The notes under the pieces were generated by a model. It was not told the origin of the DNA. It saw nothing but the letters and a program-made list of their open reading frames with translations, and made no database searches. This document shows positions 6,461-40,042 of a DNA stretch of 40,042 bases, piece after piece. Source of the DNA: Psammoneis japonica (Eukaryota); assembly GCA_008632985.1 (NCBI GenBank), contig QPGO01000045.1:496001-536042 (forward strand), written 5' to 3'. The translations under genes and the position numbers were made by a program. The stretch's first letter is position 1; each line of letters starts with the position of its first letter.

Positions 6461-6856
6461 GACGGGTTCCAGCCCCAGGTGGGACTTTTTGTGACATTGG
6501 GCCCGTGGAATTCTGCGTGCGAGCTCCACAGTGAAATTGTCAAGCAATGAACACATGAATGATCGCCAACAGAAAAAGAGGCAATTTTGCGAACGTGTCT
6601 CCTCCTCCACACTTGAAGTGCATTCTTTGCAGCATGCCCGGGTGTGTTCTTCAGACATTGAAGAACACACCCAGTGCATTTTTGTTGACACAAGTGCAGA
6701 TGACAGAAAGCCTTTGGCTTCGCAAAACAGACAGTGTGGAACAATTTTTTGTGATGGAACACATGGAAATGTGCACGCGAAACATGCGACGGATGACAAA
6801 AAACAATCATGTCACAGTTCAGTGGTGCGAGGTCCCACCCAGAGCTGGAGCACGTC
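6461..6856 (+). mobile_element. MITE family A, copy 1 (396 bp, ~25-bp imperfect TIRs, TSD TTCA)
   Basis: Starts GACGGGTTCCAGCCCCAGGTGGGAC and ends GTCCCACCCAGAGCTGGAGCACGTC. TTCA lies at 6457-6460 and 6857-6860. Removing it restores the frame EVK-SQHS. Confidence 0.9.
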
Positions 6857-6860
6857 TTCA

Positions 6861-7046
6861 CCTCACCCAGAATCGCAAATGGAGATGGTTCAGGAAACAC
6901 TTTCACAAGCCCTTCTTTTGTGAAATTGTCTGGCGGAGGAGGAGGTGACTGACAGGTTGTGCCGTGCGTCGGCCACTTTGTTCGGGAACACTCAAATTGT
7001 TCCTCAAGAGTCGGCACATCTTGGAGAATCAGCGATTCGTTCTGAG
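6861..7046 (-). pseudogene. Middle segment of the large hypothetical ORF, between the Gypsy and MITE insertions
   Basis: Translates SQNESLILQDVPTLEEQ...ILGEVK and is in frame with both neighbouring segments once the insertions are excised. Confidence 0.65.
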
Positions 7047-7050
7047 AAAC

Positions 7051-7481
7051 TGCCCCACGCATGTGCCAGGTGCTGAAAAGAAGATGTGTTGCGACCTTGT
7101 CGTTGTGAAAATCATGAGCCAGTTTGGAGCAGAGAAAGTGGGATCGTGCGAACAGGGAATCTTGCCAAATCCACATTCGCTCGCATTTGGATCACGTCAA
7201 ATCGATTGTGCGTTCACATTGTGGATCGTGCGAATCAAGCCATCGCGTGCCATGCACGAGTGATGTCATCGTGTGGAATCACGCTGCCATCGTGGGCCAG
7301 ACGACGGGCCAGTGTGCTTCACACGGATGCTCTCTTGGCACCCTTCTGGAGTTTCCCAAGACCTGGAGCCACGCCCTCCTGTGGTCGTGCTTCCCAGGTG
7401 CGTGTTGACAATGCTGCGTTGTCACGCACAAGAGGCTCATGCACGGTCTCGCCGTGTTGTCCTGCAGTGAGGCACACTGCA
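7051..7481 (-). repeat. 3' LTR of the Gypsy element
   Basis: Direct repeat of 11819-12249 with TG..CA ends, adjacent to the polypurine tract. Confidence 0.92.
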
Positions 7482-7494
7482 CACTCCCCCATGA
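7482..7494 (-). promoter_or_regulatory. Polypurine tract of the Gypsy element
   Basis: Minus strand TCATGGGGGAGTG immediately precedes the 3' LTR. Confidence 0.7.
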
Positions 7495-7520
7495 TCAGGG
7501 CAGCCAAGTGACAGGATGTC

Positions 7521-9134
7521 TCACTGGTGACAGGGTGCAATCTGCCGTAGATTGTGCGTTTCCATCAGCGCTCCGTTCTGGATGCGCAACGTGCCGGGTC
7601 CTGCACAGCTGTCAGAACCGCACCCAGAGGATTGTTCCTGTTTGACAAGTGCCAATTGCCCTGCGGTGTGTTGATGCTCCTTGCGTTTCTGATTTTCACG
7701 CTTGTCATTTGAGTGGACAAGCTTCTGCTTTCTGGTTTCTATGTGCTTCCACTTGGCACGATGGGCAACAGACAAAACCGCATCGCGTCCGAAGACCAAT
7801 TGCGCGGGACTTGCACGCGTGGTTGTGTGCACTGCAGCCCCAATGGCGAAGGCCACTGCTGCGGAGAGGATGCCACTCCATGGGTCATCTTCATCCAGTT
7901 CCACACCCTGCACTGAAAAGGAACGCACCATGTCACCAAGTGTCTGGTGTGCATGTTCCACTGTGGCACTCGCCTGTGGATTCCGCTCACTCGTGGGTTT
8001 CTTCAAAATCCCACAGTCATTTTTAATCATCTGGCTAAATTCTGCCATAAATTCTGTCCCACGGTCATAAACCACCTGGGTTGGCCACAGATGTCTGCAT
8101 GGCCACGTTTGTTCCACGACGTTTGCTGCGACGTCTGCGCGTTTCGTGGACACTTCTTCAATCTCGAACCACCCGGTTGCTGGGTCAATCATTGTGACTG
8201 CCCACAATTGCAAAGCGTCCTTTCCGCGTCTTTGAATTTCATGTGGCCCCATCACATCCATGCACAGAGTCTCCCATGGAATTATCTCGGCGACCTTTTC
8301 TGGCAGCTTCCCACAACGCTGCGTTCGGCGTTTTGTCTTCTGACATCGATCGCACTCAACGCACGTAGAATGCACCGTAGACCTCATGCCAGGCCAGCAG
8401 AAGTGCTGGGCAACAGACATTTCCGCACGTGTCTCACCTGGATGACACAGTGTCTCGTGGTGCCATTCAGTTAGCGGGATCTGCAATGACTGTGGCACTG
8501 CGATTTTGTCCTTGTGACAGATTAATTGTCGTGATGACCCTCCCCCACAACACGCGCGAATGGAGCAGTCGGACGAGTCCTCAGCTCGTGAGAGCAGGCG
8601 CTTGTCCTTTTGTTGTTCTTTTTGAATGCGCTTGAAGCTGATGGGCAGAGATGCATCGTCTTGCGCGTCTGCATTAAAAGCTTCATGCAAAGGACGACTC
8701 GATGGAGTGTCTTTTACATCCGGATTGGCCTCGGAAGGCAAGCTGGGTGCCAGCCGAAGGCGACTAAGACCGCCAGCGACTGGGTTGTGGGTGCCCTTGA
8801 CATGGCGTAATTCGGGACCGCATTCTTCGCATGTCAACCGCCAGCGCACAACGCGCTCGGTGTTGAATGCTTTGCACGCAAGATTTTTATGATCAGCACA
8901 TGCAAGTGTGCGATGACCGAGGAGAATCGTTCGAAATTCTTTCAACGTCTCCACAATGGCGAGCAATTCTCTCTCCATTGTTGCACAATTTAATTGCGCA
9001 CTGCTGAGCTTTCTGCCACAAAAGGCGACAGGTTTGTCATCTTGGGATGCAACTGCTCCCCAATTGACATTTAGAGGCATCAGCACGCACCTCAAAGGGT
9101 TTGCCAAAATCAGGATGTGACAATGAAACATCAT
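7521..9134 (-). pseudogene. Gypsy RNase H and integrase
   Basis: RNase H motifs PVAF[Y]..KL..AQLN[Y]..ERELLAIVE and DHKNL; HHCC zinc finger HETLCHPG..CxxC; catalytic core DVMGP / DRGTEF / NPQASATVE. Confidence 0.92.
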
Positions 9135-9213
9135 CCGATGTCACCCATTTGACGGTTTTGAACGCCTCGTCTTCAACGGACGTCCACTCCCACTTGACAG
9201 TCTTGCTTGCGAG

Positions 9214-9870
9214 TCATGTTGGCGGAGCCAAGACTTCAGAACGTCCAATCCACGCATCATGGCAGCAGCTCACCATGCCAACAAATGACTGCAGGTCGCG
9301 TTTGTTGGTTGGGTTCGCGATTCGCTCAATGGCATTGACTTCATTGGGTGTTGGTCGCATTCCGTCTCTGTTGACCAGATGACCCAAGCACTCTAATTGG
9401 GTTTGACAGAAATGAGATTTAACTGCACTGACTTTTAGCCCTGCTTTCTGGACCCTCAACAAAACTTCTTCAAGTTTGTTGAGGTGATCTTCACAGGTGC
9501 CTTTCATCATGACGAGAAGGTCATCCAAGCACGTTCGAACAAACGACAGATCTTCAAACAAGCCTGACATGCGTTCTTGGAAAATGTCTGGCAAATTGCA
9601 TGATCCCATGGGCAATGCCTGCATCTCATGCTTGCCCCACGGGAAGATGAGCGTGCAGAGCTTCTTGCCATCAGCATCCAATCGGATGTGACAATGGCCC
9701 ATGTTTGAATCCAGCAATGCAGCCCACACAAAGCCTTCGAGCTCAAGTGGCACATCTTGGATGTGAGGAATCGCAGTCGCTTGATCCGTTCACTCAGCTC
9801 TCTGAAATCATTGACAAAGCGCACTGTTAAATCTTTCTTCGGTGTGATGAATGATGGAGCTGCCCATTGG
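9214..9870 (-). pseudogene. Gypsy reverse transcriptase, frameshifted
   Basis: RFVNDFREL, LD.NMG[YY]HI, WGK[Y]E..LPMG and RT[Y>C]LDD. Confidence 0.92.
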
Positions 9871-9872
9871 GA

Positions 9873-11711
9873 TCAGTTGACGCGTTTGAGAACACCAATG
9901 CGCGCTGGGCGTTCCACTTCTTTACATGGCGCAGCTTCGCACGCACGAGGTGCTTTGCACGGACGAGCGTGGCATGGTTCCACACCCTCCTTGAGTTGGA
10001 CATGGCAGGGTTCTCCCTTCCATTCTCCTGATGTCCCATCAAACAAGGACTCGTGGCGCTTCAACAGTGCCAAAAGGTCATTTCGTTGAACTGCAGAAAG
10101 TCCCATTGCCTCTCGTGTTATGTCCTCAAGGCAGGCCGGCGCGCACTTGGCGCCCAAAATGCATGAAATCCGGTCGGTTTCCGAAGATGAGGCTTCTGGA
10201 TCTTGAAGATAGAAGGAGGTTTCTACCGCAGCATCTGCGCGCCTCATTGGTGCTTCTCCATTGACCAACGGCCACTCTGTCATCTGTTTGGAGAAGACAA
10301 TGTCAATGCCTTGTGTCTCCAGAATGTCACGTCCAACAATCACATCGCACTTGCCCAACTTTCCATTGTGCACGTGGACGGCATGTTTGAGTTCTGCAGT
10401 TTCGGACAATTCTGGCAACCGAAATTTAACGGTGCAGTCGTTGGACGTGCTGAACGAGCCTGCCACCGTGGTCCAGTTTGTCTCAGCCGTTGGACGGCTT
10501 TGCAGATGCTTGCAGCATCGACTGTCGAGCAGAGTGGTGCTGGCACCACTGTCCAGCAGTGCCTTGATGGTTTGAGTCTTGCCCTTGCCATGTTCAGTGT
10601 TCACAGCTGCAAACAAGATTGGAGCAAGATGAGTCTTTTTAACTCGTTTGTGGGATTGGCCTGCAACACGTGTGCGATGGCAATTCAATTGTTCATTGAT
10701 GCATTCGCCCAATGTGTCAAAACTGCCTGTGTTGTGTCGGCCCCCTTCTCCGGTGTCCGAATCTTTGGAATCACTCAAGTTGAGGTCGCGGAAGTGATCA
10801 AGCTCCTCCTTGCGTGCCTTGCGTTTTTTCTGAGCGTTGGCAAAGAACTCCTCGACCTTTGATCCGATGAGAGTGTCAATGTTTTCCTCATTCCGAGGTT
10901 TTGCATTGGGCTTGCTGCCTCCGTTGCTGGAATGTCCAGTCTTGACACGTTTCACGTGGGTGCTCGGTTGGGTCGTGATCAACGACTCAGGATTGTCCGT
11001 TCTACATCCCCGCTTGCGTGGAACCTCAGCATGTTGGTCCAGGTTACCTTCGGCAAGCTCGACCTGCTCGATGCGCTCGCAGAACTGCACAAATTTGGTG
11101 ACAGTGTGCGCCAATGGGTCAAAATTCTGCAACGTCATGAACTTCTGCCATGCGTTTGGCACACCACACTCGAACATGTCGCACAGTTTGTCGTTGGGCA
11201 ATGGTGCCGGTGCTTCTCCATCCTCCATCACAGGTGGAAACTGAGAGACACAGCCGTTAATTTCAACAGCCCTTGCGACACAGTCACGAGCAGAAACCTC
11301 TGCGGGCTTGCGCATGAAGCACCTCAGATGACGCTTCTTCAACAGCACCGCCCCATGTGGGAAGATGCTTTCCTTTGGCTTTGCGATGCATGCTGTGTGC
11401 GTGGCGTTGGTTTGGGATGCCTGCTTGTCAGCGGCATCATTGAATGACATCAGAGCATCGCCCTGCAGCAGGTCACGCATGAGGGCAAATTTCGCTGGCC
11501 CTGTCGTGATGTTTTGTCCTTCGCGCACGCGATCCACGTTGCGCAGAAAGATCAGGAGTGTCTCGCATGCAGCCGTGGAAAGGTGCGGGATGCCCATCTC
11601 GTGCGTTGGACTGCCCGGATCAGCAGGGTTGTTGCGCAGTTTGAACGTCTGGTGCTCGCCCTTGCTGCAGCTCTTTCTTCTCCGGCCATGCGAATGGAGT
11701 TGGAGGCTCAA
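9873..11711 (-). pseudogene. Gypsy gag, aspartic protease and start of RT
   Basis: 612-aa ORF with a gag-like N-terminus, ALLDSGAST protease motif, DVIVGRD, and the start of the RT region. Confidence 0.88.
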
Positions 11712-11797
11712 CTCGCTTCTTCATGGTCGTTTTGAGATTTGTCGGTCCTGCCAACATTTCATAGTTTCGTTTCTGCAGATTTCGTCACCTCGCACAA

Positions 11798-11815
11798 CAT
11801 GCGGGAGCAACACCA
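11798..11815 (-). promoter_or_regulatory. Putative primer-binding site
   Basis: TGGTGTTGCTCCCGCATG starts 3 nt after the 5' LTR; TGG is complementary to tRNA CCA. The cognate tRNA was not identified. Confidence 0.45.
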
Positions 11816-11818
11816 CTG

Positions 11819-12249
11819 TGCCCCATGCATGCACCAGGCGCTGAAAAGAAGATGTGTTGCGACCTTGTCATTGTGAAAATCATGAGCCAGTTTAAAGCAG
11901 AGAAAGTGGGATCGTGCAAACAGGGAATCTTGCCAAATCCCTGTTCGTTTGCATTTGGATCGCATCAAATCGATCGTGCGTTCGCATTGTGGATCGTGCA
12001 AATCAAGCCATCACACGCTGTGCACGAGTGATGTCATCGTGTGGAATCACGCCACCATCGTGGGCCAGACAATGGGCCAGTGTGCTTCACACGGATGCTC
12101 TCTTGGCATCCTTCTGGAATTTCCTGAGACCCAGAGCCATGCCCTCCAGTGGTCGTGCTTCCCAGGTGCACGTCAACAACACCGCGTTGTCACGTGCAAG
12201 AGGCTTGTGCATGGTCTCGCCGTGTTGTCCAGCGGCAAGGCATGCTGCA
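11819..12249 (-). repeat. 5' LTR of the Gypsy element
   Basis: Direct repeat of 7051-7481, same length, flanked by AAAC. Confidence 0.92.
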
Positions 12250-12253
12250 AAAC

Positions 12254-17885: not shown

Positions 17886-19320
17886 ACATCTGCGAACCAA
17901 TTTCAAAGGCGGGGCCACTTCACTCACCTTCTTAAACTCTCATGCATCACTGGGCGGGGATGGCCTTCATCTTTTGCCTGCTGTTGCTGACAAAGGAGGG
18001 TTGTGAGGTGTGTGCCTCCTGCTTCAGCAAGGAAGATGCAGAGGAATCGTCACTTCCCTTGGGTGCCACATCNNNNNNNNNNNNNNNNNNNNNNNNNNNN
18101 NNNNNNNNNNNNNNNNNNNNNNNNNNNNNNNNNNNNNNNNNNNNNNNNNNNNNNNNNNNNNNNNNNNNNNNNNNNNNNNNNNNNNNNNNNNNNNNNNNNN
18201 NNNNNNNNNNNNNNNNNNNNNNNNNNNNNNNNNNNNNNNNNNNNNNNNNNNNNNNNNNNNNNNNNNNNNNNNNNNNNNNNNNNNNNNNNNNNNNNNNNNN
18301 NNNNNNNNNNNNNNNNNNNNNNNNNNNNNNNNNNNNNNNNNNNNNNNNNNNNNNNNNNNNNNNNNNNNNNNNNNNNNNNNNNNNNNNNNNNNNNNNNNNN
18401 NNNNNNNNNNNNNNNNNNNNNNNNNNNNNNNNNNNNNNNNNNNNNNNNNNNNNNNNNNNNNNNNNNNNNNNNNNNNNNNNNNNNNNNNNNNNNNNNNNNN
18501 NNNNNNNNNNNNNNNNNNNNNNNNNNNNNNNNNNNNNNNNNNNNNNNNNNNNNNNNNNNNNNNNNNNNNNNNNNNNNNNNNNNNNNNNNNNNNNNNNNNN
18601 NNNNNNNNNNNNNNNNNNNNNNNNNNNNNNNNNNNNNNNNNNNNNNNNNNNNNNNNNNNNNNNNNNNNNNNNNNNNNNNNNNNNNNNNNNNNNNNNNNNN
18701 NNNNNNNNNNNNNNNNNNNNNNNNNNNNNNNNNNNNNNNNNNNNNNNNNNNNNNNNNNNNNNNNNNNNNNNNNNNNNNNNNNNNNNNNNNNNNNNNNNNN
18801 NNNNNNNNNNNNNNNNNNNNNNNNNNNNNNNNNNNNNNNNNNNNNNNNNNNNNNNNNNNNNNNNNNNNNNNNNNNNNNNNNNNNNNNNNNNNNNNNNNNN
18901 NNNNNNNNNNNNNNNNNNNNNNNNNNNNNNNNNNNNNNNNNNNNNNNNNNNNNNNNNNNTTGTTCTTCCCTTCACGGCTTCATTCTTTCTTTCGAAGAGA
19001 GACCAATGGTGAGTCATTTGCAATTGTTCATCCTTGCACTTGCCAGGTGGACAAGCACACCATGGTGGAGCACTTGCAACACACCGACCTTGTCAGTCAA
19101 TGGCAATTGGGTCAAGCAAAAAAGCAAGATTTGTTCACACGTGAAAAAGCCGTGCATGCTCCAAAACTGCATTTGGTTCCCATTGAGGCCATCGGCAACA
19201 AATTGCAGGTTTGCAAGAAACAACCGGGAATTTCCGAGTCACACAAGAAGACAAAGCACGTTTTGGTGGTTCAAGACAGGAGAAAAACATGGGCAGACAA
19301 GTTTCACAAAAAGCGGTTGA
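17886..19320 (+). pseudogene. Second Plavaka-like transposase copy, 3' half, spanning a gap
   Basis: LRTNFKGGATSL.FLNS and HHWAGMAFIFCLLLLTKEG match 1931-2060. After the gap, FPSRL..FF..AIVHP..QHTDLVSQWQL..PKLHLVPIEAIG..QDRRK.W match 3050-3390. Confidence 0.75.
18073..18959. other. Assembly gap
   Basis: Run of N. Confidence 1.
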
Positions 19321-20364
19321 TGGGCAGTTTCAACACTGGCAACTGCAAACAGCAGCTTGCAATTCGAAAGCATGTTGGAGCCTGCCATTTCTGGAACATG
19401 AGCAATTTCAACAACAGACAACACAACCAGGACAACCACCACTCACCCTGTTCAAGCAGTTGACAACGCACTTAGAATTGAACAAGTCAACATCGTTTGT
19501 TGATGGATGGCTCCAGAAACCACTTGGGCCACACTCGCACACTCACCTTGGGTTGTTTGATTTCTCATCTGGTGTCAACTGCATCTCCACTCGCCTCAAA
19601 ATCAAACTCCCCTTGGTTTGTGTTGGACTCAGTGCTTGTTCTGATTCCTCACAGAACCTGTCAGTTGTTGGACTGACATTGTTGTTCGCAGTGCTGTGCA
19701 GACTGTGCATGGAAGCTCGAGTCATTGTGACCGCGATGATTTTGGCAGTTGTGCAGAAGCCACGTGGGAACTTGGCACACAGGTGGGAACCAATGTTTGA
19801 ATTTTGTCTCATTCCAACCATCGGATTTTGACAAATTTGGCCGATTCCCAACGCAGAGCCACACAGGCATGTGCCAGTGTTCCTGGAACTGGTCGTCGCG
19901 TTCCCGGAGTCAGCGATGCACATGACGCGACACTGGAGGGTCGCTTCTGTCTCGCAGAAATCCACGTGCTGTCCAGCATTGAAGCTCGAAAAGTGCTTTC
20001 GACCCAATGGTGGTTCCTGCACATGCTGGCTGTGACAATGTTGTGCAGGTTGCTGGTGCATGACGTCGCAGAGTTCAATCGTGTTTGACTTGCAAAAACC
20101 AACGCTGAATCAGAAAAGCCTGTGCAAATGGACAAAACACATGAACAGAGCTGCCCAACAAAAACAAATGCACACCTGCATGTGTTGACAACACAGACAA
20201 AAAAGCAAACCCACGCAATGAACCACAATCAAAGAGGCCATCACCATCGACAATGGCATTTCCAGCAGTCCTGCAACAAGAGTGCATCACCAGGATCAGA
20301 CAACAGAGAGCCACATCAATGAATTTTGTTGGCATCTGCTGCGTCAGTCCTCCAACTGATGGGT

Positions 20365-20760
20365 GACACACCCCAGCTCTGGGTGGGACCTTGCACTGCT
20401 GCACTGTGACATCAATGGTTTTTTGGATTGCGTCGCATGTCATGCGCGCACATTTCTGCGTGTTGCATTCTACGAAATTGTCTCATGCTCCCTGTTTTGC
20501 AAAGCCAAAGGCTTTCTATTTTCAACATTTGTGAGAATGAAAACATGCTGGGTGTGTTCTTTGATGTCTGCAGAATGCACCCGGGCAAACCATTGATGAT
20601 GTGCTCCAAGTCTGACGGAGGAGATGCGTTCGTAAAATTGCCTCTTTTTCTGTTGGCTGTCATTTGCATTTGCACTGCAGCACAAATTTGCTGTCGAGCT
20701 TGCACGCAGAATTCTGTGGCCCAATGTCACACGGAGTCCCACCTGGGGCTGGAACCCGTT
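20365..20760 (-). mobile_element. MITE family A, copy 2 (396 bp, TSD GGGT)
   Basis: Reverse-complement homolog of copy 1. GGGT lies at 20361-20364 and 20761-20764. Confidence 0.9.
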
Positions 20761-21263: not shown

Positions 21264-21488
21264 GACGTGTTCCAGTCCCAGGCGGGGCTCCGTGTGACAT
21301 TGGGCCTGCAGAATTCTGCGTGTGAGCTCCGCAGCAAATTTGCGCTGCAATGAAAATGTGTGTGATCGCCAACAGAAAAAGAGGCAATTTTGCAAACGCA
21401 TCTCCTCCTTCATGCTTGCAGCGCATCATTGACAGTTTGCCCGGGCACATTCTTAGACATCAATGCCAAGTGGCCATGTTGAAGGACA
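21264..21488 (+). mobile_element. MITE family A, copy 3 (partial, runs toward the gap)
   Basis: GACGTGTTCCAGTCCCAGGCGGGGCTCCGTGTGACATTGGGCC matches the left end of the family. Confidence 0.85.
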
Positions 21489-22240
21489 NNNNNNNNNNNN
21501 NNNNNNNNNNNNNNNNNNNNNNNNNNNNNNNNNNNNNNNNNNNNNNNNNNNNNNNNNNNNNNNNNNNNNNNNNNNNNNNNNNNNNNNNNNNNNNNNNNNN
21601 NNNNNNNNNNNNNNNNNNNNNNNNNNNNNNNNNNNNNNNNNNNNNNNNNNNNNNNNNNNNNNNNNNNNNNNNNNNNNNNNNNNNNNNNNNNNNNNNNNNN
21701 NNNNNNNNNNNNNNNNNNNNNNNNNNNNNNNNNNNNNNNNNNNNNNNNNNNNNNNNNNNNNNNNNNNNNNNNNNNNNNNNNNNNNNNNNNNNNNNNNNNN
21801 NNNNNNNNNNNNNNNNNNNNNNNNNNNNNNNNNNNNNNNNNNNNNNNNNNNNNNNNNNNNNNNNNNNNNNNNNNNNNNNNNNNNNNNNNNNNNNNNNNNN
21901 NNNNNNNNNNNNNNNNNNNNNNNNNNNNNNNNNNNNNNNNNNNNNNNNNNNNNNNNNNNNNNNNNNNNNNNNNNNNNNNNNNNNNNNNNNNNNNNNNNNN
22001 NNNNNNNNNNNNNNNNNNNNNNNNNNNNNNNNNNNNNNNNNNNNNNNNNNNNNNNNNNNNNNNNNNNNNNNNNNNNNNNNNNNNNNNNNNNNNNNNNNNN
22101 NNNNNNNNNNNNNNNNNNNNNNNNNNNNNNNNNNNNNNNNNNNNNNNNNNNNNNNNNNNNNNNNNNNNNNNNNNNNNNNNNNNNNNNNNNNNNNNNNNNN
22201 NNNNNNNNNNNNNNNNNNNNNNNNNNNNNNNNNNNNNNNN
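21489..22240. other. Assembly gap
   Basis: Run of N. Confidence 1.
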
Positions 22241-28189: not shown

Positions 28190-29470
28190 CGCCAGTCATT
28201 GTTGCTGGCATTGTTGCTGGCACTTGGCATTCTGGAGGTGCTGCAGGCAGCATTGTTGCTGGCATTGTCACACACAGCTGGTGTGAATGGCAGCATTGCC
28301 GCTGGCATTGCAGCTGGCATTGTTGTTTGCCTGTTGGTGACTTGCTGTGTTGGCAATGTTGGCGGCACTGTCGCTGATGTTGACACAGAGAAATGCACAG
28401 ACACAACATGTTTTTGGTGGGTGTGACAGTGTGTGGTGGGTGTTGGAGTCAGTTGAAAAAGTGAGCAGCTGTCCTGTGCTGGTCATTGTTGCTGGCATTG
28501 TTGCTGGCTGTTGCAGTTGATGTTGGGAGTGGAGCTGGCATTGTTGCTGGCATTGTGGCACATGACTCTGTGCAAGTCATTGCAGGTGGAGGTTGCCAGG
28601 AAACGGGCGTCAACGCTGGCATTGTTGCTGGCGCAAATGGTGTTGTCGCTGGCATTGTGGCACATGACTTTGTGCAGGTCATTGCAGGTGGCGTCGTTGC
28701 CAGGAAACGGGCGTCAATGCTGGCATTGTCACCGGTAAATGGCACCGTCGCTGGCATTGTGGCACATGACTCTGTGCAGGTCAGTGCATGTGGCATCGTT
28801 GCCAGCAAATGGGCGTCGACGCTGGCATTGTTCGCTGGCATTGCAAACGGCATTGTGCTGGCGTTGTTGCCAACAACAGGAGAAAAGTGGAGAGTCATGG
28901 AGGAAGTTTGTCTCCACGTTTGTGTGGGATGAAGTTTTCAACATGGCTGTCAATGTGATGAAATGCTCTTTGTTTGCAGCCTCCAAAGCAAATCTTGGAA
29001 GAATGTGTTGTTGCAAAAACTGCTGATCTTGACACTGTGAAGTGCGCCAACACAACGTGTTTGTGGTGGGTGTGACAGTGTGTGGTGGGGGTTGGAGTCA
29101 GTTGAACAAGTGGGGAGCCATCCTGTGCTGGTCATTGTTGTCGGCATTGTCGGCGGCTGTTGCAGTTGATGTTGGGAGTGCAGCTGGCGTTGTCGCTGGC
29201 ATTGTGGCGCGTGACTCTGCGCAGGTCATTGCAGGTGGCGTTGTTGCCATGAAACGGGCGTCAACGCTGGCATTGTCGCTGGTGCTGCAAATGGCATTGT
29301 TGCTGGCGTTGAGGCAGCATTGTGGCACATGACTCTGTGTGGGTCATTGCAAGTGGCGTCATTGCCAGGAAACGGGCATCGACGCTGGCATTGTCGCTGG
29401 CATTGCAAGTGGCATTGTCGCTGGTGTTGAGGCACAGTGATCTGTGGTGGTCTTTGTTGGCGGCACTGCA
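28190..29470. repeat. Complex minisatellite of GCTGGCATTGTT-like 12-mers with higher-order units
   Basis: Many GCTGGCATTGT[TGC] repeats, recurring GGCACATGACTCTGTGCAGGTCATTGCAGGTGG blocks, and a block at ~28400 repeated at ~29050. Confidence 0.85.
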
Positions 29471-29695
29471 GCTGGCAGGTGGCGCACATGATGGCATTGA
29501 CGCTGGCTCTGTGTTGAGAGCAGGACATGATGTTTGTTGTCTGGAGGTCATTGTGGCGGTGGATTGGTGCGATGAGCTGGGTTGTGGCTGCCACTGTTGG
29601 CGGCGCATGTCGCTGTGCGCGGCATTGTCGGCAGCGCATTCAAAATGACAATGTGGTGCAGATGTCCTCACAGCAGCTCAAAAAATGGAGCAAAG

Positions 29696-30143
29696 ATGTC
29701 TCAAAAAGAACGGTTTTGGGTTGAAGATGTGGGGGCTTCTGTGGAGTTGGTTGAAAGGCGATTTTTTAAAGTGGTCATCAAAGGAAGACCACAGCCCATG
29801 AGGCGAGCAAGAACAGGCAGGAGGCATTTTTGCAGCACATGTGAAAGTGAAATGGAATGTTTTCGTTCGTTGATCAAGGGGTGGATGAGGAAGCAAGCTG
29901 TGGAGAAGCCGATGTTCAAGGAGTGGGTGCGGCTGTCCATTGAAATGGAGCTTCGCCTGACCCACTCAGGCAGTCGTGAGCCAGACTTGGACAATCTTTG
30001 CAAATTTGTGATGGACTGTGCCAATGGACTGGTTTGCAATGACGACATTGATGTTGAAAAATCCACGCACGAAAGTTCAGCTGTGCTTCCAAGTCTGATG
30101 TTGGGAGCACCTTCTTTTTGGCGAAAAGAGTGGATCTTTAAAT
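29696..30143 (+). pseudogene. RusA-family Holliday junction resolvase pseudogene
   Basis: I.GRPQPMRRAR N-terminal motif and PDLDNLCKFVMDCANGLV[Y>C]NDD.DV, the RusA D..N..K...D.....DD signature. A probable 1-nt deletion lies near 30060 (alternative frame IHARKF), and a MITE is inserted at 30144. Confidence 0.8.
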
Positions 30144-30533
30144 GGCGCGTTCCAGGTCCAGGTGGGACCTCGCACTGCTGAACTGCGACATCGACAGTTT
30201 TTTGAATCACGTCGCATGTCGCGCACGCAGATTTCTGCATGGTTTTTTTGACATTTTGTGTCATTTTACGGTGCACTCATTGAGCGATCCGTCCAACAAC
30301 TTTTGACATTTTTTGTTGCAGCGCGATTCTGTGATGTCTTAAGAATCGCGCAAGGCAGGTGCATTTGCAAAAACGTCGAGTGGCAAGAGGCATGATTGTG
30401 CCACAAACTTGGCCGTTTGTTTGATGTTGAAGACAAATGTGTCCATTGATTAAATTCTCGCACTGCGGAGCTCGCACGTAGAATTCCAAGGGCCCAATGT
30501 CACACGGAGTCCCGCCCGGGGCTGGAGCGCGTC
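30144..30533 (-). mobile_element. MITE family A, copy 4 (390 bp, diverged interior, TSD AAAT)
   Basis: TIRs GGCGCGTTCCAGG..GGTGGGAC / GTCCCGCCCGGGGCTGGAGCGCGTC. AAAT lies at 30140-30143 and 30534-30537. Confidence 0.88.
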
Positions 30534-31365: not shown

Positions 31366-31379
31366 TTCAGCTGCCAGCT

Positions 31380-31775
31380 GACGCGTTCCAGACGCAGGTG
31401 GGAATCCGTGTGACGTTGGGCCCGCAGAATTCTACGTGCGAGCTCCGCAGCAAAATTGTGCGGCAATTAGAGCGCCGATGTTCGCCAACAGAAAATGAGG
31501 CAATTTTGCGAACGCACAAACTCGCACATGATTGAAGCACATCGATTTTTGCTTGGCCAGCTGCGTTCTTCAGACATTGAAGAATGCAGCTGGCGCGTTG
31601 TTGTTTCTACAAGCGCGCCATGCAAAACGTCTGGGGCTTCGCAAAACAGCAAGTCTGGGCAATTTTTTTTAAACGCCGCACGTGGAAATGCACGTGCGAA
31701 ACATGCGACGGATGACAAAAATTGTTTGTGTCACACGCCAGCACTGCGAGCTCCCACCTGGGGCTGGAGCGCGTC
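31380..31775 (+). mobile_element. MITE family A, copy 5 (396 bp, TSD AGCT)
   Basis: GACGCGTTCCAG..CTGGAGCGCGTC, with AGCT at 31376-31379 and 31776-31779. Confidence 0.9.
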
Positions 31776-31777
31776 AG

Positions 31778-33321: not shown

Positions 33322-34008
33322 GCAGCATGCGTGCAGACAAAAGGTCATTTGACGCGTTCCAGACGCAGGTGGGAATCCGTGTGACATTGGGCCCGCAGAC
33401 TTCTGCGTGCAAGCTCCGCAGCAAAATTGCGCGGCAATTAAAGCGCCAATGATCGCCAACAGAAAATGAGGCAATTTTGCGAACACACAAACTCGCACAT
33501 GATTGAAGTGCGCGCTGTTGTTTCCACAAATTCGCCATGTGAAACGTCTGGGGCTTCGCAAAACAGCGAGTCTGGACAATTTTTTTTAAACATCGCACGC
33601 AGAAATCTGCGTGCGAAACATGCGACGGATGACAAAAATTGTTGTTGTCACACGTCAGTGCTGCGAGCTCCCACCTGGGGCTGGAACGCGTCATTTTTGT
33701 CACGCCCTTTGTGACATTTAAAGGCTGCAACACGTTGCCGTGACACGTTGACTCTCATTGGCAGCTGTGTGCTGCACTCCTCCCCATGCATCGCGCATCC
33801 ACGCGGCTCTTTGCTGAAGTGTGCTGACACTGCATGGTTTTGGCAGAACAGTGTGGGTGCGTGCGAAGGAACATGCAGAGCTGCACAGAGTTTTGCGCGT
33901 TCGACAGTGGTCAACGTTGCTGCAGACAACTCCCACTCAGGGTTTCGAACCCCTGGCCTCCTGCCTGATGGTTGCGACAAACCACTCCGCTGTGAATTCA
34001 CAGCGCAG
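33322..34008 (-). mobile_element. Family B SINE-like copy interrupted by MITE copy 6
   Basis: Colinear with 27291-27631 after removing 33351-33696; palindrome at 33988-34005. Confidence 0.7.
33351..33692 (+). mobile_element. MITE family A, copy 6 (342 bp, internal deletion, TSD ATTT)
   Basis: TIRs are intact, with ATTT at 33347-33350 and 33693-33696. The empty site is visible in the family B copy near 27311. Confidence 0.92.
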
Positions 34009-34088
34009 TTTCGGATGATTCTGGTGGCTGAATTTTAACGGCACAGTCGTCAGACGTGCTGAACGAGCCTGCCACCGCAGCCCAGTTT
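34005..34088 (-). mobile_element. Short fragment of a related Gypsy protease region
   Basis: Matches 10396-10480 (W..VAGSFSTS.DC.VK...PE.SETA). Confidence 0.8.
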
Positions 34089-34499: not shown

Positions 34500-36200
34500 A
34501 GCAGCGTCCCATCATGCGTNGCGAGCGTGTGGCACCCAGCCAAGGGCCTTGGTGAGGTCATCGCTGGGGTTGACAATGCCAGGAACATGTCTTGTGACAA
34601 TCTTGCCCGCTTCCTTCCATTCTTGGATCGCAAAAAACTGAATCTCAATGTGACGGGATCGCTCAGTCGGGATCGAGTGATTGATGATCTTGATCGCCGA
34701 TTCGTTGTCAATGTGTGCGGGGTTGGCTCCGTCTGAGGGAAGCCCAGGTCTTGTAGAACGTGACGAAGGTGCAGGACATGCTTGGCAGCAGTTCCAGCAG
34801 CACAAAATTCAGCTTCCGTAGAGCTCGCAGCGGTCACCGATTGGGTCTTGCACCGAAAAGACACAGCAGCGCCAGCCAACATGCAAGCATGGCCAGTCGT
34901 AGAACGATGGTTGCGGAGGTCATTGCCACAAGCAGCATCCAAGAAAGCAACGAGTTGATGATCACATGCAGGACAAGGGAACGATGGCAAGGTCGGGTCC
35001 GGAGTGAGACGTTCGAAGGGGCAGGCGGGCAGTTTGGAGTCTCGGGCAGGCTTCCTGCAGTTCAATTCCCAATGTTTGGTGCGTCGAAGGTGCTTGCACA
35101 TTCCTTTGAGCACGTCACAGTGAACCACAGCAGGACAGGTCGAGAACTTGGATGGAGTGGTGACAGCATGCCCAATGTCCAGTCGACAGACAACGCACGC
35201 ACACAACAATTCGCCAAGAAGAGTTCGGCAGCCGAAACCAGCAGCTTGTTGTGGTTCCGCATGCTCCGGGGTTCCTTCAGCTGGGCCAATGGCACCACAC
35301 AGTTTGCGAAAAGAGTCAACAGGTGGTGGCGCAGCCTTGCAGTCGTCGTCAAGTTCCTCGTCCGTCAGTGTCGACCAACCATGCTGGGCACAAACCCGAT
35401 CCATGTGGCTGTGAACAGCAACACCAATGGAGTCATTGCATTGATGAACATCTGCGCCATTGAATTCGTCAATCATGCCAAGACACTTGAACGGCGGAGA
35501 GGTCTCCGATTCCAATTGGAGAGCTTTGCCAATCTTGTCACAGATCTTGATCGCAATGGACTCTTCAGGACAAGCGAGAGAGAAATCATCAACCTGACGG
35601 AGGAGCAAGATCTTGTGTCCTTCAAAAGCAGCAGAGTGGGCACATTTGTCATGAGCAGTGTTGTGAAAAAGCTGGTTCACATCNAGATGAAATGCCGTTG
35701 ATGTGCGTCTCCCAGAGCACGCCGGCTTCTGGGTGTCCTTGAAGTGCATGTTGCATCGGGAGCACCGTGCTCCTGTCCAAGTCAATGCCAAACCGAGCCT
35801 TGTGCCAGGTTGCGCATGCCTCGTCTGTGGCAACACACACGGGGTGTGACGGTCGTGGAGAGTGTGCACAGACATCACGAGCATCCCCACCAAAGACAGG
35901 ATAGCTCATGGTCGCAGCAAGGGCAAAAAACATGCGTTGGATGGGCTGCTCAACACAGGATGAGTGCGTCGAGTAGAGTCAATGTAGCATCAACGCAGCA
36001 TGGGGAGATCCATCACAGCACTGTCGAGAGCGCCGTGTGCCATCATGCTTGAGGTCATGTTGCCAATGTGGACAAAGTGCGACAGCATCCTTGGGTCATT
36101 TAATCGGTGCACCAAACATCCCCAACTCATGGAACTGGTCAAGTTGTTTGAATTCACCTGCACGCCATTCAGGCCACGTGTCCAACTTCTTGAGGCAGTG
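34500..36200 (-). pseudogene. Copia reverse transcriptase and RNase H
   Basis: ALQGHPEAG.LWE, LLRQVDDF, GF.[Y]RTLLGELL[Y], DAA[Y]GND, SSTEAEF, DNESA and NPSDDLTKALG. Confidence 0.92.
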
Positions 36201-37900
36201 GCGGGTGAAAGCACCTGAGGCTTGTTCCTCTGGAGTGACAGCGTGAGATGAGACAGCACAGATGTTGACCACACCATTGTCACAATCAACAAAGAACGGC
36301 GGAGGGACATCGTCATCGTCCGTTTCGGAGAAATCAATGTCGGGGTGGCGGATGGCAGCAACAGCACGTGTGTCGGCGTTGGTGATTTCCGGAACATGCT
36401 CATCATCAGGATCAGGACTCGGTGCACATGTGTTGTGTTCCATCAGAGCACGTTGCAGGGCTTGAGAGTCCAGGCGACGTTCCGGCGCGAATTCAATTTC
36501 AAAATGAGTCTTGCCAGAATCACAGACTTGCTGAAAACGTTTGACAGCCTCCTCTGCCGTGAACACAGGATGATCGTCGATCGACACGACACACGCACCC
36601 TTGATCTTGTTGCGGGTGGCCTTCAAAGAAGAGAAAAGACGCGCAGCAGGAGAACCACGCTTGATGTCAGAGACAAATGCTCGCCGATGGAGATCGTCCG
36701 TAGCCAAGGAAAGTCCAAACGTGGGATCAGCAAATGGTCCCTTCATCATGCGCTCAATGGTCTTGGCAAAAGGATTCCCATGAAAGTGGAGCTCATCCAT
36801 CGTGGTTTCTTCAGTCTCGGCAGGCAAAGCCTTGCCATCTTGAGTGCGTTCCAAGTGAACCACATTCGGCGGAAGAGAGTCGTGGGGAAGATCATTCATG
36901 CCCTCATCGCAGCGAATGTGCTTGGCAAGCTTGACACGCGATGTCTCAGTGTCACACCAAAGAATGTTCTTGGCAGTGTCCGGAAGACAGCCTAAGAACA
37001 TTCCCTTGCGAGAGACAGACCGAAATTTTGCTGGGCGGTGATTCGACGCACGCACCCACACTTGACAACCAAATGCACGAAAGTTCTTGAAATCATCCTT
37101 CCGACCAGTGGCGAGAGCAATCGGAGCAGCAGGTTGTCCGCGGGATGGCACAGCGTTGTTGATTCGAATGAAATGATGAAAAGCACAGGGCCAGAATTTG
37201 ATGGGCAAATCGGCACCGATTGGCATCGCCCGGATGGCATTGGCAACAGACAAATGACTGCGTTCCACTGGGCCACTCTGATTTGAAGCATCTTTTCCCG
37301 CAGGACGAATTGCACAATGAAAGTCATCCTCGAAGAGTTGCCGAACTTCTGGGTTCTGATGTTCACCTCCTTGATCCATGAATGCATGTTTGTCTGGACA
37401 TTTTGGTGAGTGCTCTTCCAGAAAGTGGCGAATCCAATTCAAAGGGGTTGCCTTGGAGACACGAGTCGCACCATGGAGACGCTTCGTTTTATGATCATAA
37501 ACAGCAATCCAACAAGTCTCGCCATTCAATCCAACACAGTCCTTGGTGCGCTCCGAGTTCTTGGAGCGCAGGCCAGAGAAGGAAAAATCAATCGCAAGGC
37601 CTTGGTGGTTGGCAGCAGAGAGTGTTCGGACCGGCAGGTTCCTTCGTCTGCTTTTGTGTGCATGTGGGACAAGTGTCGAGAGGAGAAGTTCCGTGGGCAA
37701 ACTTGGGGACGCCATCAACATGTTCATGGGCATGACAAAGGCAGTGATCACTCGGATGACCAAGTCGCTGATGCCACAAAAGACGTTCCGTGTCGGCCTT
37801 GAGAGACTGGACAGGAATGTTCTTCTCAGCATGCTTCTCGAAAGGAATGTCTTGACAGACACGGGGGATCAACTTGCGTTCATCACGAAGAGCTTCATGT
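36200..37900 (-). pseudogene. Copia pre-integrase, integrase and PDZ-like linker
   Basis: LLWHQRLGH..CPTC, IDFSFSG, MDQGGE, NQSGPVER, FWP[Y]AF, FGCQVWVR and GMFLG[Y]. Confidence 0.9.
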
Positions 37901-38052
37901 TGGTGGGTGCGACAAGTCTCAATCACACGCAGAGACCGCTTCACACTCATCGGCAAAAGAAGGATCAGCAGTCTTGAGGCGCTCGACAGATGCATCCAGT
38001 TCGTCGTTAGATTCCGGGAGAATGAGAGGGTGAGCAAAACATTTTCCATTGA

Positions 38053-39687: not shown

Positions 39688-39847
39688 TTTTGGTCATGCA
39701 CGCACAGAAATCTGGTGTGTTTCTACAGTCGTGAAAAATGCCGGGAAAGCGAAACAAAAAGTTGTCGGATCAGACAATGAGGCTCGCTCGATCGGCTCAC
39801 AAAACAAATGAACCGAGATAGAAAGCTTGGCGCAGAAGTCTGTGGCA

Positions 39848-40042
39848 GACGCGTTCCAGCTCTGGGTGGGACCTCACACCACTGAACTGTGACACAATTG
39901 TTTTTTGTCATCCGTCACATGTTTTGCACTTGCATTTCTACGTGTTCCATTGTAAAAATTTGTTCCACACTGCCTGTTTTGCGAAGCCAAAGGCTCTCTG
40001 TTGTCCACATTCATGACAACAAAAATGTGCTGGGTGTGTTCT
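39848..40042 (-). mobile_element. MITE family A, copy 7 (cut by the window end), in the Copia leader
   Basis: GACGCGTTCCAGCTCTGGGTGGGACCTCACACCACTGAACTGTGAC matches the reverse complement of the right end of copy 1. Confidence 0.9.

Follow-up and report, generated by a model that had tools for sequence, protein, structure and literature searches.

The closest described system is that of Bigelowiella natans. Its mutation-accumulation lines yielded 302 nuclear mutations, of which 231 were located in integrated nucleocytoplasmic large DNA virus (NCLDV) and virophage regions; of these, 230 were A>G or T>C changes, each of the 230 at TpA (Mettrop et al., bioRxiv 10.64898/2026.01.13.699255). Among the TpA-depleted coding sequences of B. 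natans, the same source reports an enrichment of Pfam families for reverse transcriptases and transposases, and it describes the NCLDV insert as only partly depleted (Rho TpA 0.45), as is the virophage insert; deamination of DNA adenine by an ADAT2-like enzyme, serving as a defence, is offered by its authors as a proposal only (bioRxiv 10.64898/2026.01.13.699255). In the full-text literature searched, this is the single report of nuclear rewriting of TA to CA or TG in integrated DNA (two viral inserts, one alga), and the terms "LTR", "retrotransposon" and "long terminal" do not occur in the main text of bioRxiv 10.64898/2026.01.13.699255. The present analysis concerns a Ty3/gypsy long terminal repeat (LTR) retrotransposon at positions 7051-12249 of a 40,042-nucleotide stretch of contig QPGO01000045.1 (positions 496,001 to 536,042; hereafter the window, from whose first letter all positions are counted). 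The sequence of its two LTRs and of the surrounding repeats makes it likely that a process converting TpA to CpA or TpG acted after integration, on both strands of chromosomal double-stranded DNA.

A single, dead Ty3/gypsy element, oriented along the minus strand, occupies 7051-12249. Its parts are as follows.

7047-7050, no strand: left copy of the target-site duplication (TSD), AAAC, read from the letters of the window.
7051-7481, minus strand: 3′ LTR (left in the window), 431 bp, with TG...CA ends and 0 TA remaining.
7482-7496, minus strand: candidate polypurine tract region, minus-strand ATGGGGGAGTG immediately ahead of the 3′ LTR, with the purine run GGGGGAG adjoining that LTR.
7524-9140, minus strand: frame with RNase H, integrase zinc-binding and integrase core domains (Pfam RT_RNaseH 8.8e-16, Integrase_H2C2 3.7e-11, rve 5.8e-6).
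9217-9789, minus strand: reverse transcriptase frame, isolated by frame breaks (Pfam RVT_1 2.2e-9).
9876-11720, minus strand: gag and aspartic protease frame (gag-asp_proteas 2.9e-4, under the curated cut-off; DSGAS in the translation).
11799-11818, minus strand: putative primer-binding site beside the 5′ LTR, minus-strand CAGTGGTGTTGCTCCCGCA, whose TGG-starting stretch lies 3 bases away from the LTR.
11819-12249, minus strand: 5′ LTR (right in the window), 431 bp, likewise with TG...CA ends and with 1 TA remaining, at 11893.
12250-12253, no strand: right copy of the TSD, AAAC, read from the letters of the window and from empty-site contigs.

The order of protease, reverse transcriptase, RNase H and integrase on the minus strand, as given by the coordinates of the Pfam matches, is the domain order of Ty3/gypsy elements. 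Coding capacity is not intact: frame breaks and stops separate the gag-protease, reverse transcriptase and RNase H-integrase frames, and CLDD stands in place of the catalytic YxDD motif of the reverse transcriptase. Five contigs of the public run X1 pass from position 7050 directly to ATCAGAAGG, the sequence that follows 12253; these empty-site contigs are other copies of the host repeat without the element and confirm the insertion. Because of the TSD and the empty sites, both LTRs can be ascribed to one insertion event, and the LTRs of an LTR retrotransposon are identical at insertion. The repeat in which the element is nested is of high copy number, with a summed X1 contig depth of about 40000 at 6800-6967. 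In the flank outside the element, the empty-site contigs have CA where the window has TG (GGTTCACC and GGTTTGCC, respectively), which is one more reciprocal site of the kind described below. Further copies of the element within the window, searched for with BLAST, came to only an 84-bp piece at 34005-34088. Protein searches, at near lengths and at longer ones, gave closest relatives of 57% and 56% identity, both metagenome proteins, and no unmutated sister copy; a degenerate LTR pattern scanned against metagenomes gave 0 matches.

In a gap-free alignment over 431 positions the two LTRs are 87.7% identical, and their 53 differences consist of 50 transitions and 3 transversions. The differences divide into 24 that make up 12 reciprocal doublets, at which one LTR has CA and the other TG, 21 of CpG type, in which CG in one LTR stands opposite TG or CA in the other, and 8 that are neither.

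7064, 7174, 7251, 7285, 7357, 7364, 7406, 7412, 7427, 7438, 7468 and 7475 (left-LTR coordinates; span 7064-7476): the 12 reciprocal CA/TG doublets, whose right-LTR partners lie at the left coordinate + 4768.
7126-7127, no strand: TGG (left) opposite TAA (right, 11894-11895), the sole site of the LTR pair with TA.

At the reciprocal sites each LTR carries 6 CA and 6 TG, which are interleaved (8 runs, 7 expected in a runs test). All seven sites quoted in the original prediction are present in the letters, namely the reciprocal doublets at 7064, 7251, 7406, 7438, 7468 and 7475 and the TGG/TAA site at 7126-7127. The six doublets are real, but the list was incomplete, as 12 exist, and the 21 CpG-type differences went unmentioned. 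As for the claim that TA had been kept in the right LTR only, TA is indeed there, but the site is equivocal and not self-polarising, because two neighbouring bases differ.

The number of reciprocal sites exceeds what decay of CpG alone would be expected to leave. With 16 sites at which CG is kept in both LTRs, 8 decayed in the left LTR only and 13 in the right LTR only, 3.25 reciprocal sites would be expected if CpG decayed independently in each LTR, compared with 12 observed (P for 12 or more = 1.5e-4 by Poisson, 8e-5 by simulation). The LTR pair by itself is good but not overwhelming evidence. A comparable excess is found in other repeats of the window.

32744 and 22241, repeat pair: 5 reciprocal sites observed, 0.3 expected.
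33694 and 27317, repeat pair: 9 observed, 1.1 expected.
33350 and 31379, repeat pair: 4 observed, 0.3 expected.
20373 and 6848, repeat pair: 11 observed, 0.8 expected.

Each of these four pairs has P in the range 0.0006-0.002, and three additional pairs have a weaker excess (P 0.05-0.08). In pairs with low CpG decay (p about 0.11-0.15), 4-5 reciprocal sites stand against 0.2-0.3 expected. The window also holds up to seven copies or fragments of a repeat family about 400 bp long, which can be aligned column by column (alignment A1).

6461-6856: member of the family.
20364-20759, minus strand: member.
31379-31776: member.
33350-33693: member.
21264-21463: member.
39845-40042, minus strand: member.
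30437-30533, minus strand: member.

In eleven columns of A1, CA and TG occur together while CG and TA are both absent, and in six columns TA persists beside CA, TG or both, two of the six holding all three states. The loss of TA and the decay of CpG have thus each left traces in A1, and reciprocal sites that stem from CpG are frequent in older repeats.

Loss of TA is also evident from lines of evidence that are independent of the LTR comparison. Over the 40-kb window the observed/expected ratios are 0.06 for TA, 1.68 for CA, 1.57 for TG and 0.61 for CG, and in 2-kb bins across positions 1-40042 they range over 0.02-0.19 for TA, 1.3-2.3 for CA and TG, and 0.23-0.87 for CG. The two LTRs have TA ratios of 0.00 and 0.04, the element body has one of 0.13, and depletion is equal outside the retroelement, in the host repeat of the insertion, in a RusA-like open reading frame (ORF) and in sequence without any retroelement signature. 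At the protein level, all 13 conserved Tyr columns of the RNase H-integrase frame, compared with 60 relatives, have become Cys (8) or His (5). When the three frames are compared with 30 full-length relatives, all 28 conserved Tyr are lost, to Cys in 19 cases (all TGY) and to His in 9 (all CAY), with 15/15 in the RNase H-integrase frame, 8/8 in the reverse transcriptase frame and 5/5, all Cys, in the gag-protease frame. Other conserved residues are kept in the 30-relative alignment (His 10/11, Cys 7/7, Trp 15/16, Gly 37/38). Changes of conserved Leu to Pro (CCA) or Ser (TCA), of Val to Ala (GCA) and of Ile to Thr (ACA) or Met (ATG) fit conversion of xTA to xCA or xTG. Furthermore, 5287 contigs of X1 align to the element with a likeness of at least 80%. 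Of the 466 variants that they show, 38 of the best supported, each of these 38 outside the LTRs, were examined, and at 11 of them other copies have TA in place of the CA or TG of the window; the TA share of X1 depth is 84% at 10799, 69% at 10776 and 66% at 10926. In the same 38 best-supported variants, CG is found in other copies at 9 positions where the window has TG or CA.

These observations are best explained by a sequence of events in which a Ty3/gypsy element would have inserted into an older repeat with a 4-bp duplication and would then, as chromosomal double-stranded DNA, have come under two context-dependent mutational processes. The first would be TpA-specific, changing A to G (T to C when read from the other strand) and thus TA to TG or CA, with a choice that is apparently random at each site, and may have removed about 97-100% of the TA in the LTRs and about 85% of that in the body. 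The second would be the ordinary decay of CpG to TpG and CpA. The two LTRs would have mutated independently, so that roughly half of the former TA sites would now be CA in one and TG in the other. After subtraction of the 3.25 sites attributed to CpG, about 8.75 reciprocal sites would be TA-derived, and this excess corresponds to about 18.6 ancestral TA in 430 dinucleotides (4.3%), on the assumption that conversion was near-complete, independent between the LTRs and even between the two outcomes. A share of 4.3% is an ordinary TA content and leaves little room for conversion before insertion. The Tyr codons too have gone to either outcome, in 19 and 9 cases (binomial P=0.087), and the outcomes are unclustered (17 runs, 13.2 expected). 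Because both outcomes occur in each LTR and the surroundings are equally depleted, the substrate was probably chromosomal double-stranded DNA, hit on either strand, site by site. The post-integration, chromosomal and both-strand action that the original prediction had proposed is thus supported by the 12 reciprocal sites against about 3.3 expected, by the other repeat pairs, by A1, by the Tyr columns and by TA in other copies at positions internal to the element; its appeal to the Tyr codons as favouring TA is borne out by the 28 columns, all now Cys or His. Sequence evidence shows the signature, its timing after insertion and its action on both strands, and the enzyme is inferred from these: the leading candidate, on the model of the proposal for B. 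natans, would be one that deaminates adenine in DNA at TpA. The process looks like a way for a genome to defend itself against foreign or repeated DNA that has integrated.

Several points weigh against this account. For the LTR pair alone, P rises to 0.013 once the uncertainty in the three counts is carried through, and to 0.14 if the CpG expectation is set to its upper 95% bound (8.3). CpG sites of a hidden class that decays very fast could mimic TA-derived reciprocal sites, against which the pair alone is no safeguard, and the ancestral TA at the 12 LTR sites is inferred rather than read from other copies. The repeat pair 29022-29452 and 28373-28782 has no excess, with 4 reciprocal sites observed and 8-11 expected, and 9 of the 22 A1 columns in which CA and TG are mixed have CG in some copy. 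CpG-type change also looks heavier in the LTRs (8/24 and 13/29 of surviving-or-single-hit sites) than in the conserved Arg CGN codons of the body, 3 of which out of 26 have become CAN and none TGN; possible reasons are that the LTRs are more strongly methylated or that a weak side activity generates CG. At position 11524, which is CG in the window, all aligned X1 contigs have TG. Lastly, the B. natans mechanism is carried over by likeness only, and TA is palindromic, with the result that A>G and T>C chemistry are indistinguishable from sequence.

The self-complementarity of TA is also what gives room to a variant of the account in which the same TpA-directed process acts after integration by another chemistry, a thymine being modified or oxidised (of the hydroxymethyl- or formyl-uracil type), mispairing with G and changing to C. 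Oxidised thymine derivatives can give T>C changes, and some protists modify T at TpA. The window is silent on the chemistry, and the sole published proposal found is that an ADAT2-like enzyme deaminates adenine, which its authors put forward as a hypothesis. The thymine route is unlikely, yet it is the alternative that keeps the most weight.

Somewhat less probable again is the explanation that dispenses with a TA-directed process altogether, in which the reciprocal doublets go back to methylated CpG sites, where deamination struck each LTR separately and left TG in one and CA in the other. CpG decay is a second real and large contributor here: it is clearly active in the 21 CG differences of the LTR pair, is in line with the CG ratio of 0.61 over the window, and finds further support in the CG of other copies at 9 of the 38 best-supported variants (of 466) and in the 9 of 22 mixed A1 columns that hold CG. 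About 3 of the 12 reciprocal sites, or about a quarter, are probably CpG-derived; the possibility of a CpG origin for CA/TG pairs, which the original prediction had entered as a caveat, thus applies to part of the sites in addition to the 21 differences. Double hits at CpG are nevertheless expected at 3.25 sites only, the low-decay repeat pairs have reciprocal sites far above expectation, and neither the almost complete absence of TA from the LTRs (0.00-0.04) nor the change of all 28 Tyr to Cys or His is explained by CpG decay. The flanking context of the 12 reciprocal sites was considered as a means of telling TA from CG origin and was dropped, as the flanks are non-discriminating.

Editing of the retrotransposon before integration, either of its RNA by an ADAR-like activity (A to I at UA) or of its cDNA, is very improbable. 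It would suit a retroelement, A to G is the expected outcome, and a preference of ADAR for a 5′ U is stated in the Discussion of the preprint. However, both LTRs are made from one template, so that RNA edits would be identical in the two, whereas 12 reciprocal differences are seen. Editing of a single strand would also give one outcome, as the original prediction had argued, and what is found is 6 CA and 6 TG in each LTR together with 19 TGY and 9 CAY at the Tyr codons. Furthermore, the whole 40-kb window is equally TA-poor, including the DNA outside retroelements, the host repeat and the RusA-like ORF, and a copy that had lost 28 of 28 Tyr and carried CLDD could not have encoded working enzymes. 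An artefact (systematic miscalls, assembly, or selection against TA) can be set aside as having practically no probability in spite of the assembly gaps of the window (N runs at 18073-18959 and 21489-22240), since 872 of the 5287 X1 contigs match the element at 99% or more, X1 also holds copies with TA at homologous places, a miscall would not leave two copies with CA and TG, respectively, at one site, and selection gives no account of the loss of catalytic Tyr in a dead element.

The 140 TA dinucleotides that remain in the window, 33 of them within the element, are natural material for the context preference of the enzyme in a TpA-directed process. In the window, 39 of the 140 lie inside TTAA. 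The base after the A of a remaining TA, counted on both strands (n=280), is A in 141 cases, G in 71, C in 47 and T in 21; the base after TG, likewise on both strands, is C in 2241, T in 2069, G in 1748 and A in 1719. TAA may be relatively refractory, and TAT and TAC may be preferred.

The age of the insertion is affected by the same changes. When positions with CG, TG, CA or TA in either LTR are excluded, 4 of 189 positions differ (2.1%), compared with a raw divergence of 12.3%, and the Jukes-Cantor corrected values are 0.0215 and 0.134, respectively, a ratio of 6.3. Dating by LTR divergence is therefore inflated about six-fold unless these sites are masked, and the overestimate of age that had been predicted is real. 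By way of illustration, and only on the condition that the organism resembles B. natans in its behaviour, the clean divergence would correspond to about 3e7 generations at the baseline rate of 3.46e-10 given in the preprint (bioRxiv 10.64898/2026.01.13.699255). The numbers in the preprint (211 mutations, 6169 TpA, 3132 generations) give about 1.1e-5 per TpA per generation, at which conversion of 97% of TpA would take about 3e5 generations. Near-complete depletion would then be expected at the age of the element.

The remainder of the window is a landscape of repeats. No host gene, tRNA or Rfam family was recognised in the 40 kb with Pfam, PHROGs, Rfam at gathering thresholds and ARAGORN, and among the other frames of the window only a fragment of copia-type pol/gag and the RusA-like ORF were recognised with Pfam and PHROGs.

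29576-30178, plus strand: frame for a RusA-like Holliday junction resolvase (Pfam PF05866 6.8e-10; phrog_140 6.6e-11).
36099-38052, minus strand: copia-type retroelement fragment (SH3_retrovirus 4.3e-10; gag_pre-integrs 1e-6).
24.3-25.5 kb, 28.4-29.5 kb and 30.7-31.2 kb: tandem-like repeats.
18073-18959 and 21489-22240: the two N runs (assembly gaps) mentioned above; single N at 34520 and 35684.

The RusA-like frame is a phage- or virus-type gene amid repeats that are otherwise eukaryote-like. The copia-type fragment is equally TA-poor, and a search of the window gave no LTR pair for it. The 24-30 kb block, from which the third tandem-like repeat is excluded, has a strong skew of G over C, up to 0.53, and a CA observed/expected ratio of up to 2.29.

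Among known systems, repeat-induced point mutation (RIP) of fungi is a process of C to T change, mostly at CpA, that creates TpA. The process considered here is like RIP in that dinucleotide transitions would be made at the DNA level after integration and on both strands, ruining repeats and inflating the divergence of copies, and is unlike it in that TpA is destroyed and G+C rises, which is the opposite direction. Fungal RIP itself was examined as a candidate and rejected, the TA ratio being 0.06 and TA codons having gone to CA or TG. A wider reading, held tentatively and with less than even confidence, is that of a RIP-like defence of opposite direction, in which base editing at TpA may have run near completion on LTR retrotransposons and on the whole block of at least 40 kb, site by site on either strand, perhaps with a wider sequence preference (surviving TA is mostly TTAA or TAA, rarely TAT); such a preference could serve as a fingerprint of the enzyme.

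Decay by CpG methylation and deamination also yields TG and CA, although it cannot remove TA or make Cys and His from Tyr codons. APOBEC3 has in common with the present case that a deaminase-driven hypermutation strikes retroelements, but its target is cytosine on minus-strand cDNA before integration, with strand-biased G to A change, whereas the changes here are A>G and T>C, on both strands and probably after integration. Hyper-editing by ADAR, with A to I read as G and a 5′ U preference (bioRxiv 10.64898/2026.01.13.699255), differs in acting on RNA, so that its edits would be identical in both LTRs, and non-retroelement DNA is equally affected here. Editing of the APOBEC or ADAR type, common to both LTRs and confined to one strand, was rejected as a candidate, since each LTR has 6 CA and 6 TG at the 12 reciprocal sites.

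The closest likeness is to B. natans: the target dinucleotide is the same, both outcomes occur, chromosomal DNA is affected, and TpA depletion is accompanied by CpA and TpG enrichment. The changes in the element are A>G or T>C at TpA with both TpG and CpA as products, and action on integrated DNA is indicated by the discordance of the LTRs and by the repeat pairs. The two cases differ in extent, depletion being near-complete here (0.06) over at least 40 kb and partial there, and in the kind of evidence for timing, which comes from de novo mutations in B. natans and from the LTR pair in the window. What is new compared with B. natans is a TpA signature that is almost complete on a retrotransposon, and the use of an LTR pair as an internal clock that argues for damage after insertion and on both strands; if the organism is other than B. 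natans, it would represent a second lineage with such a system.

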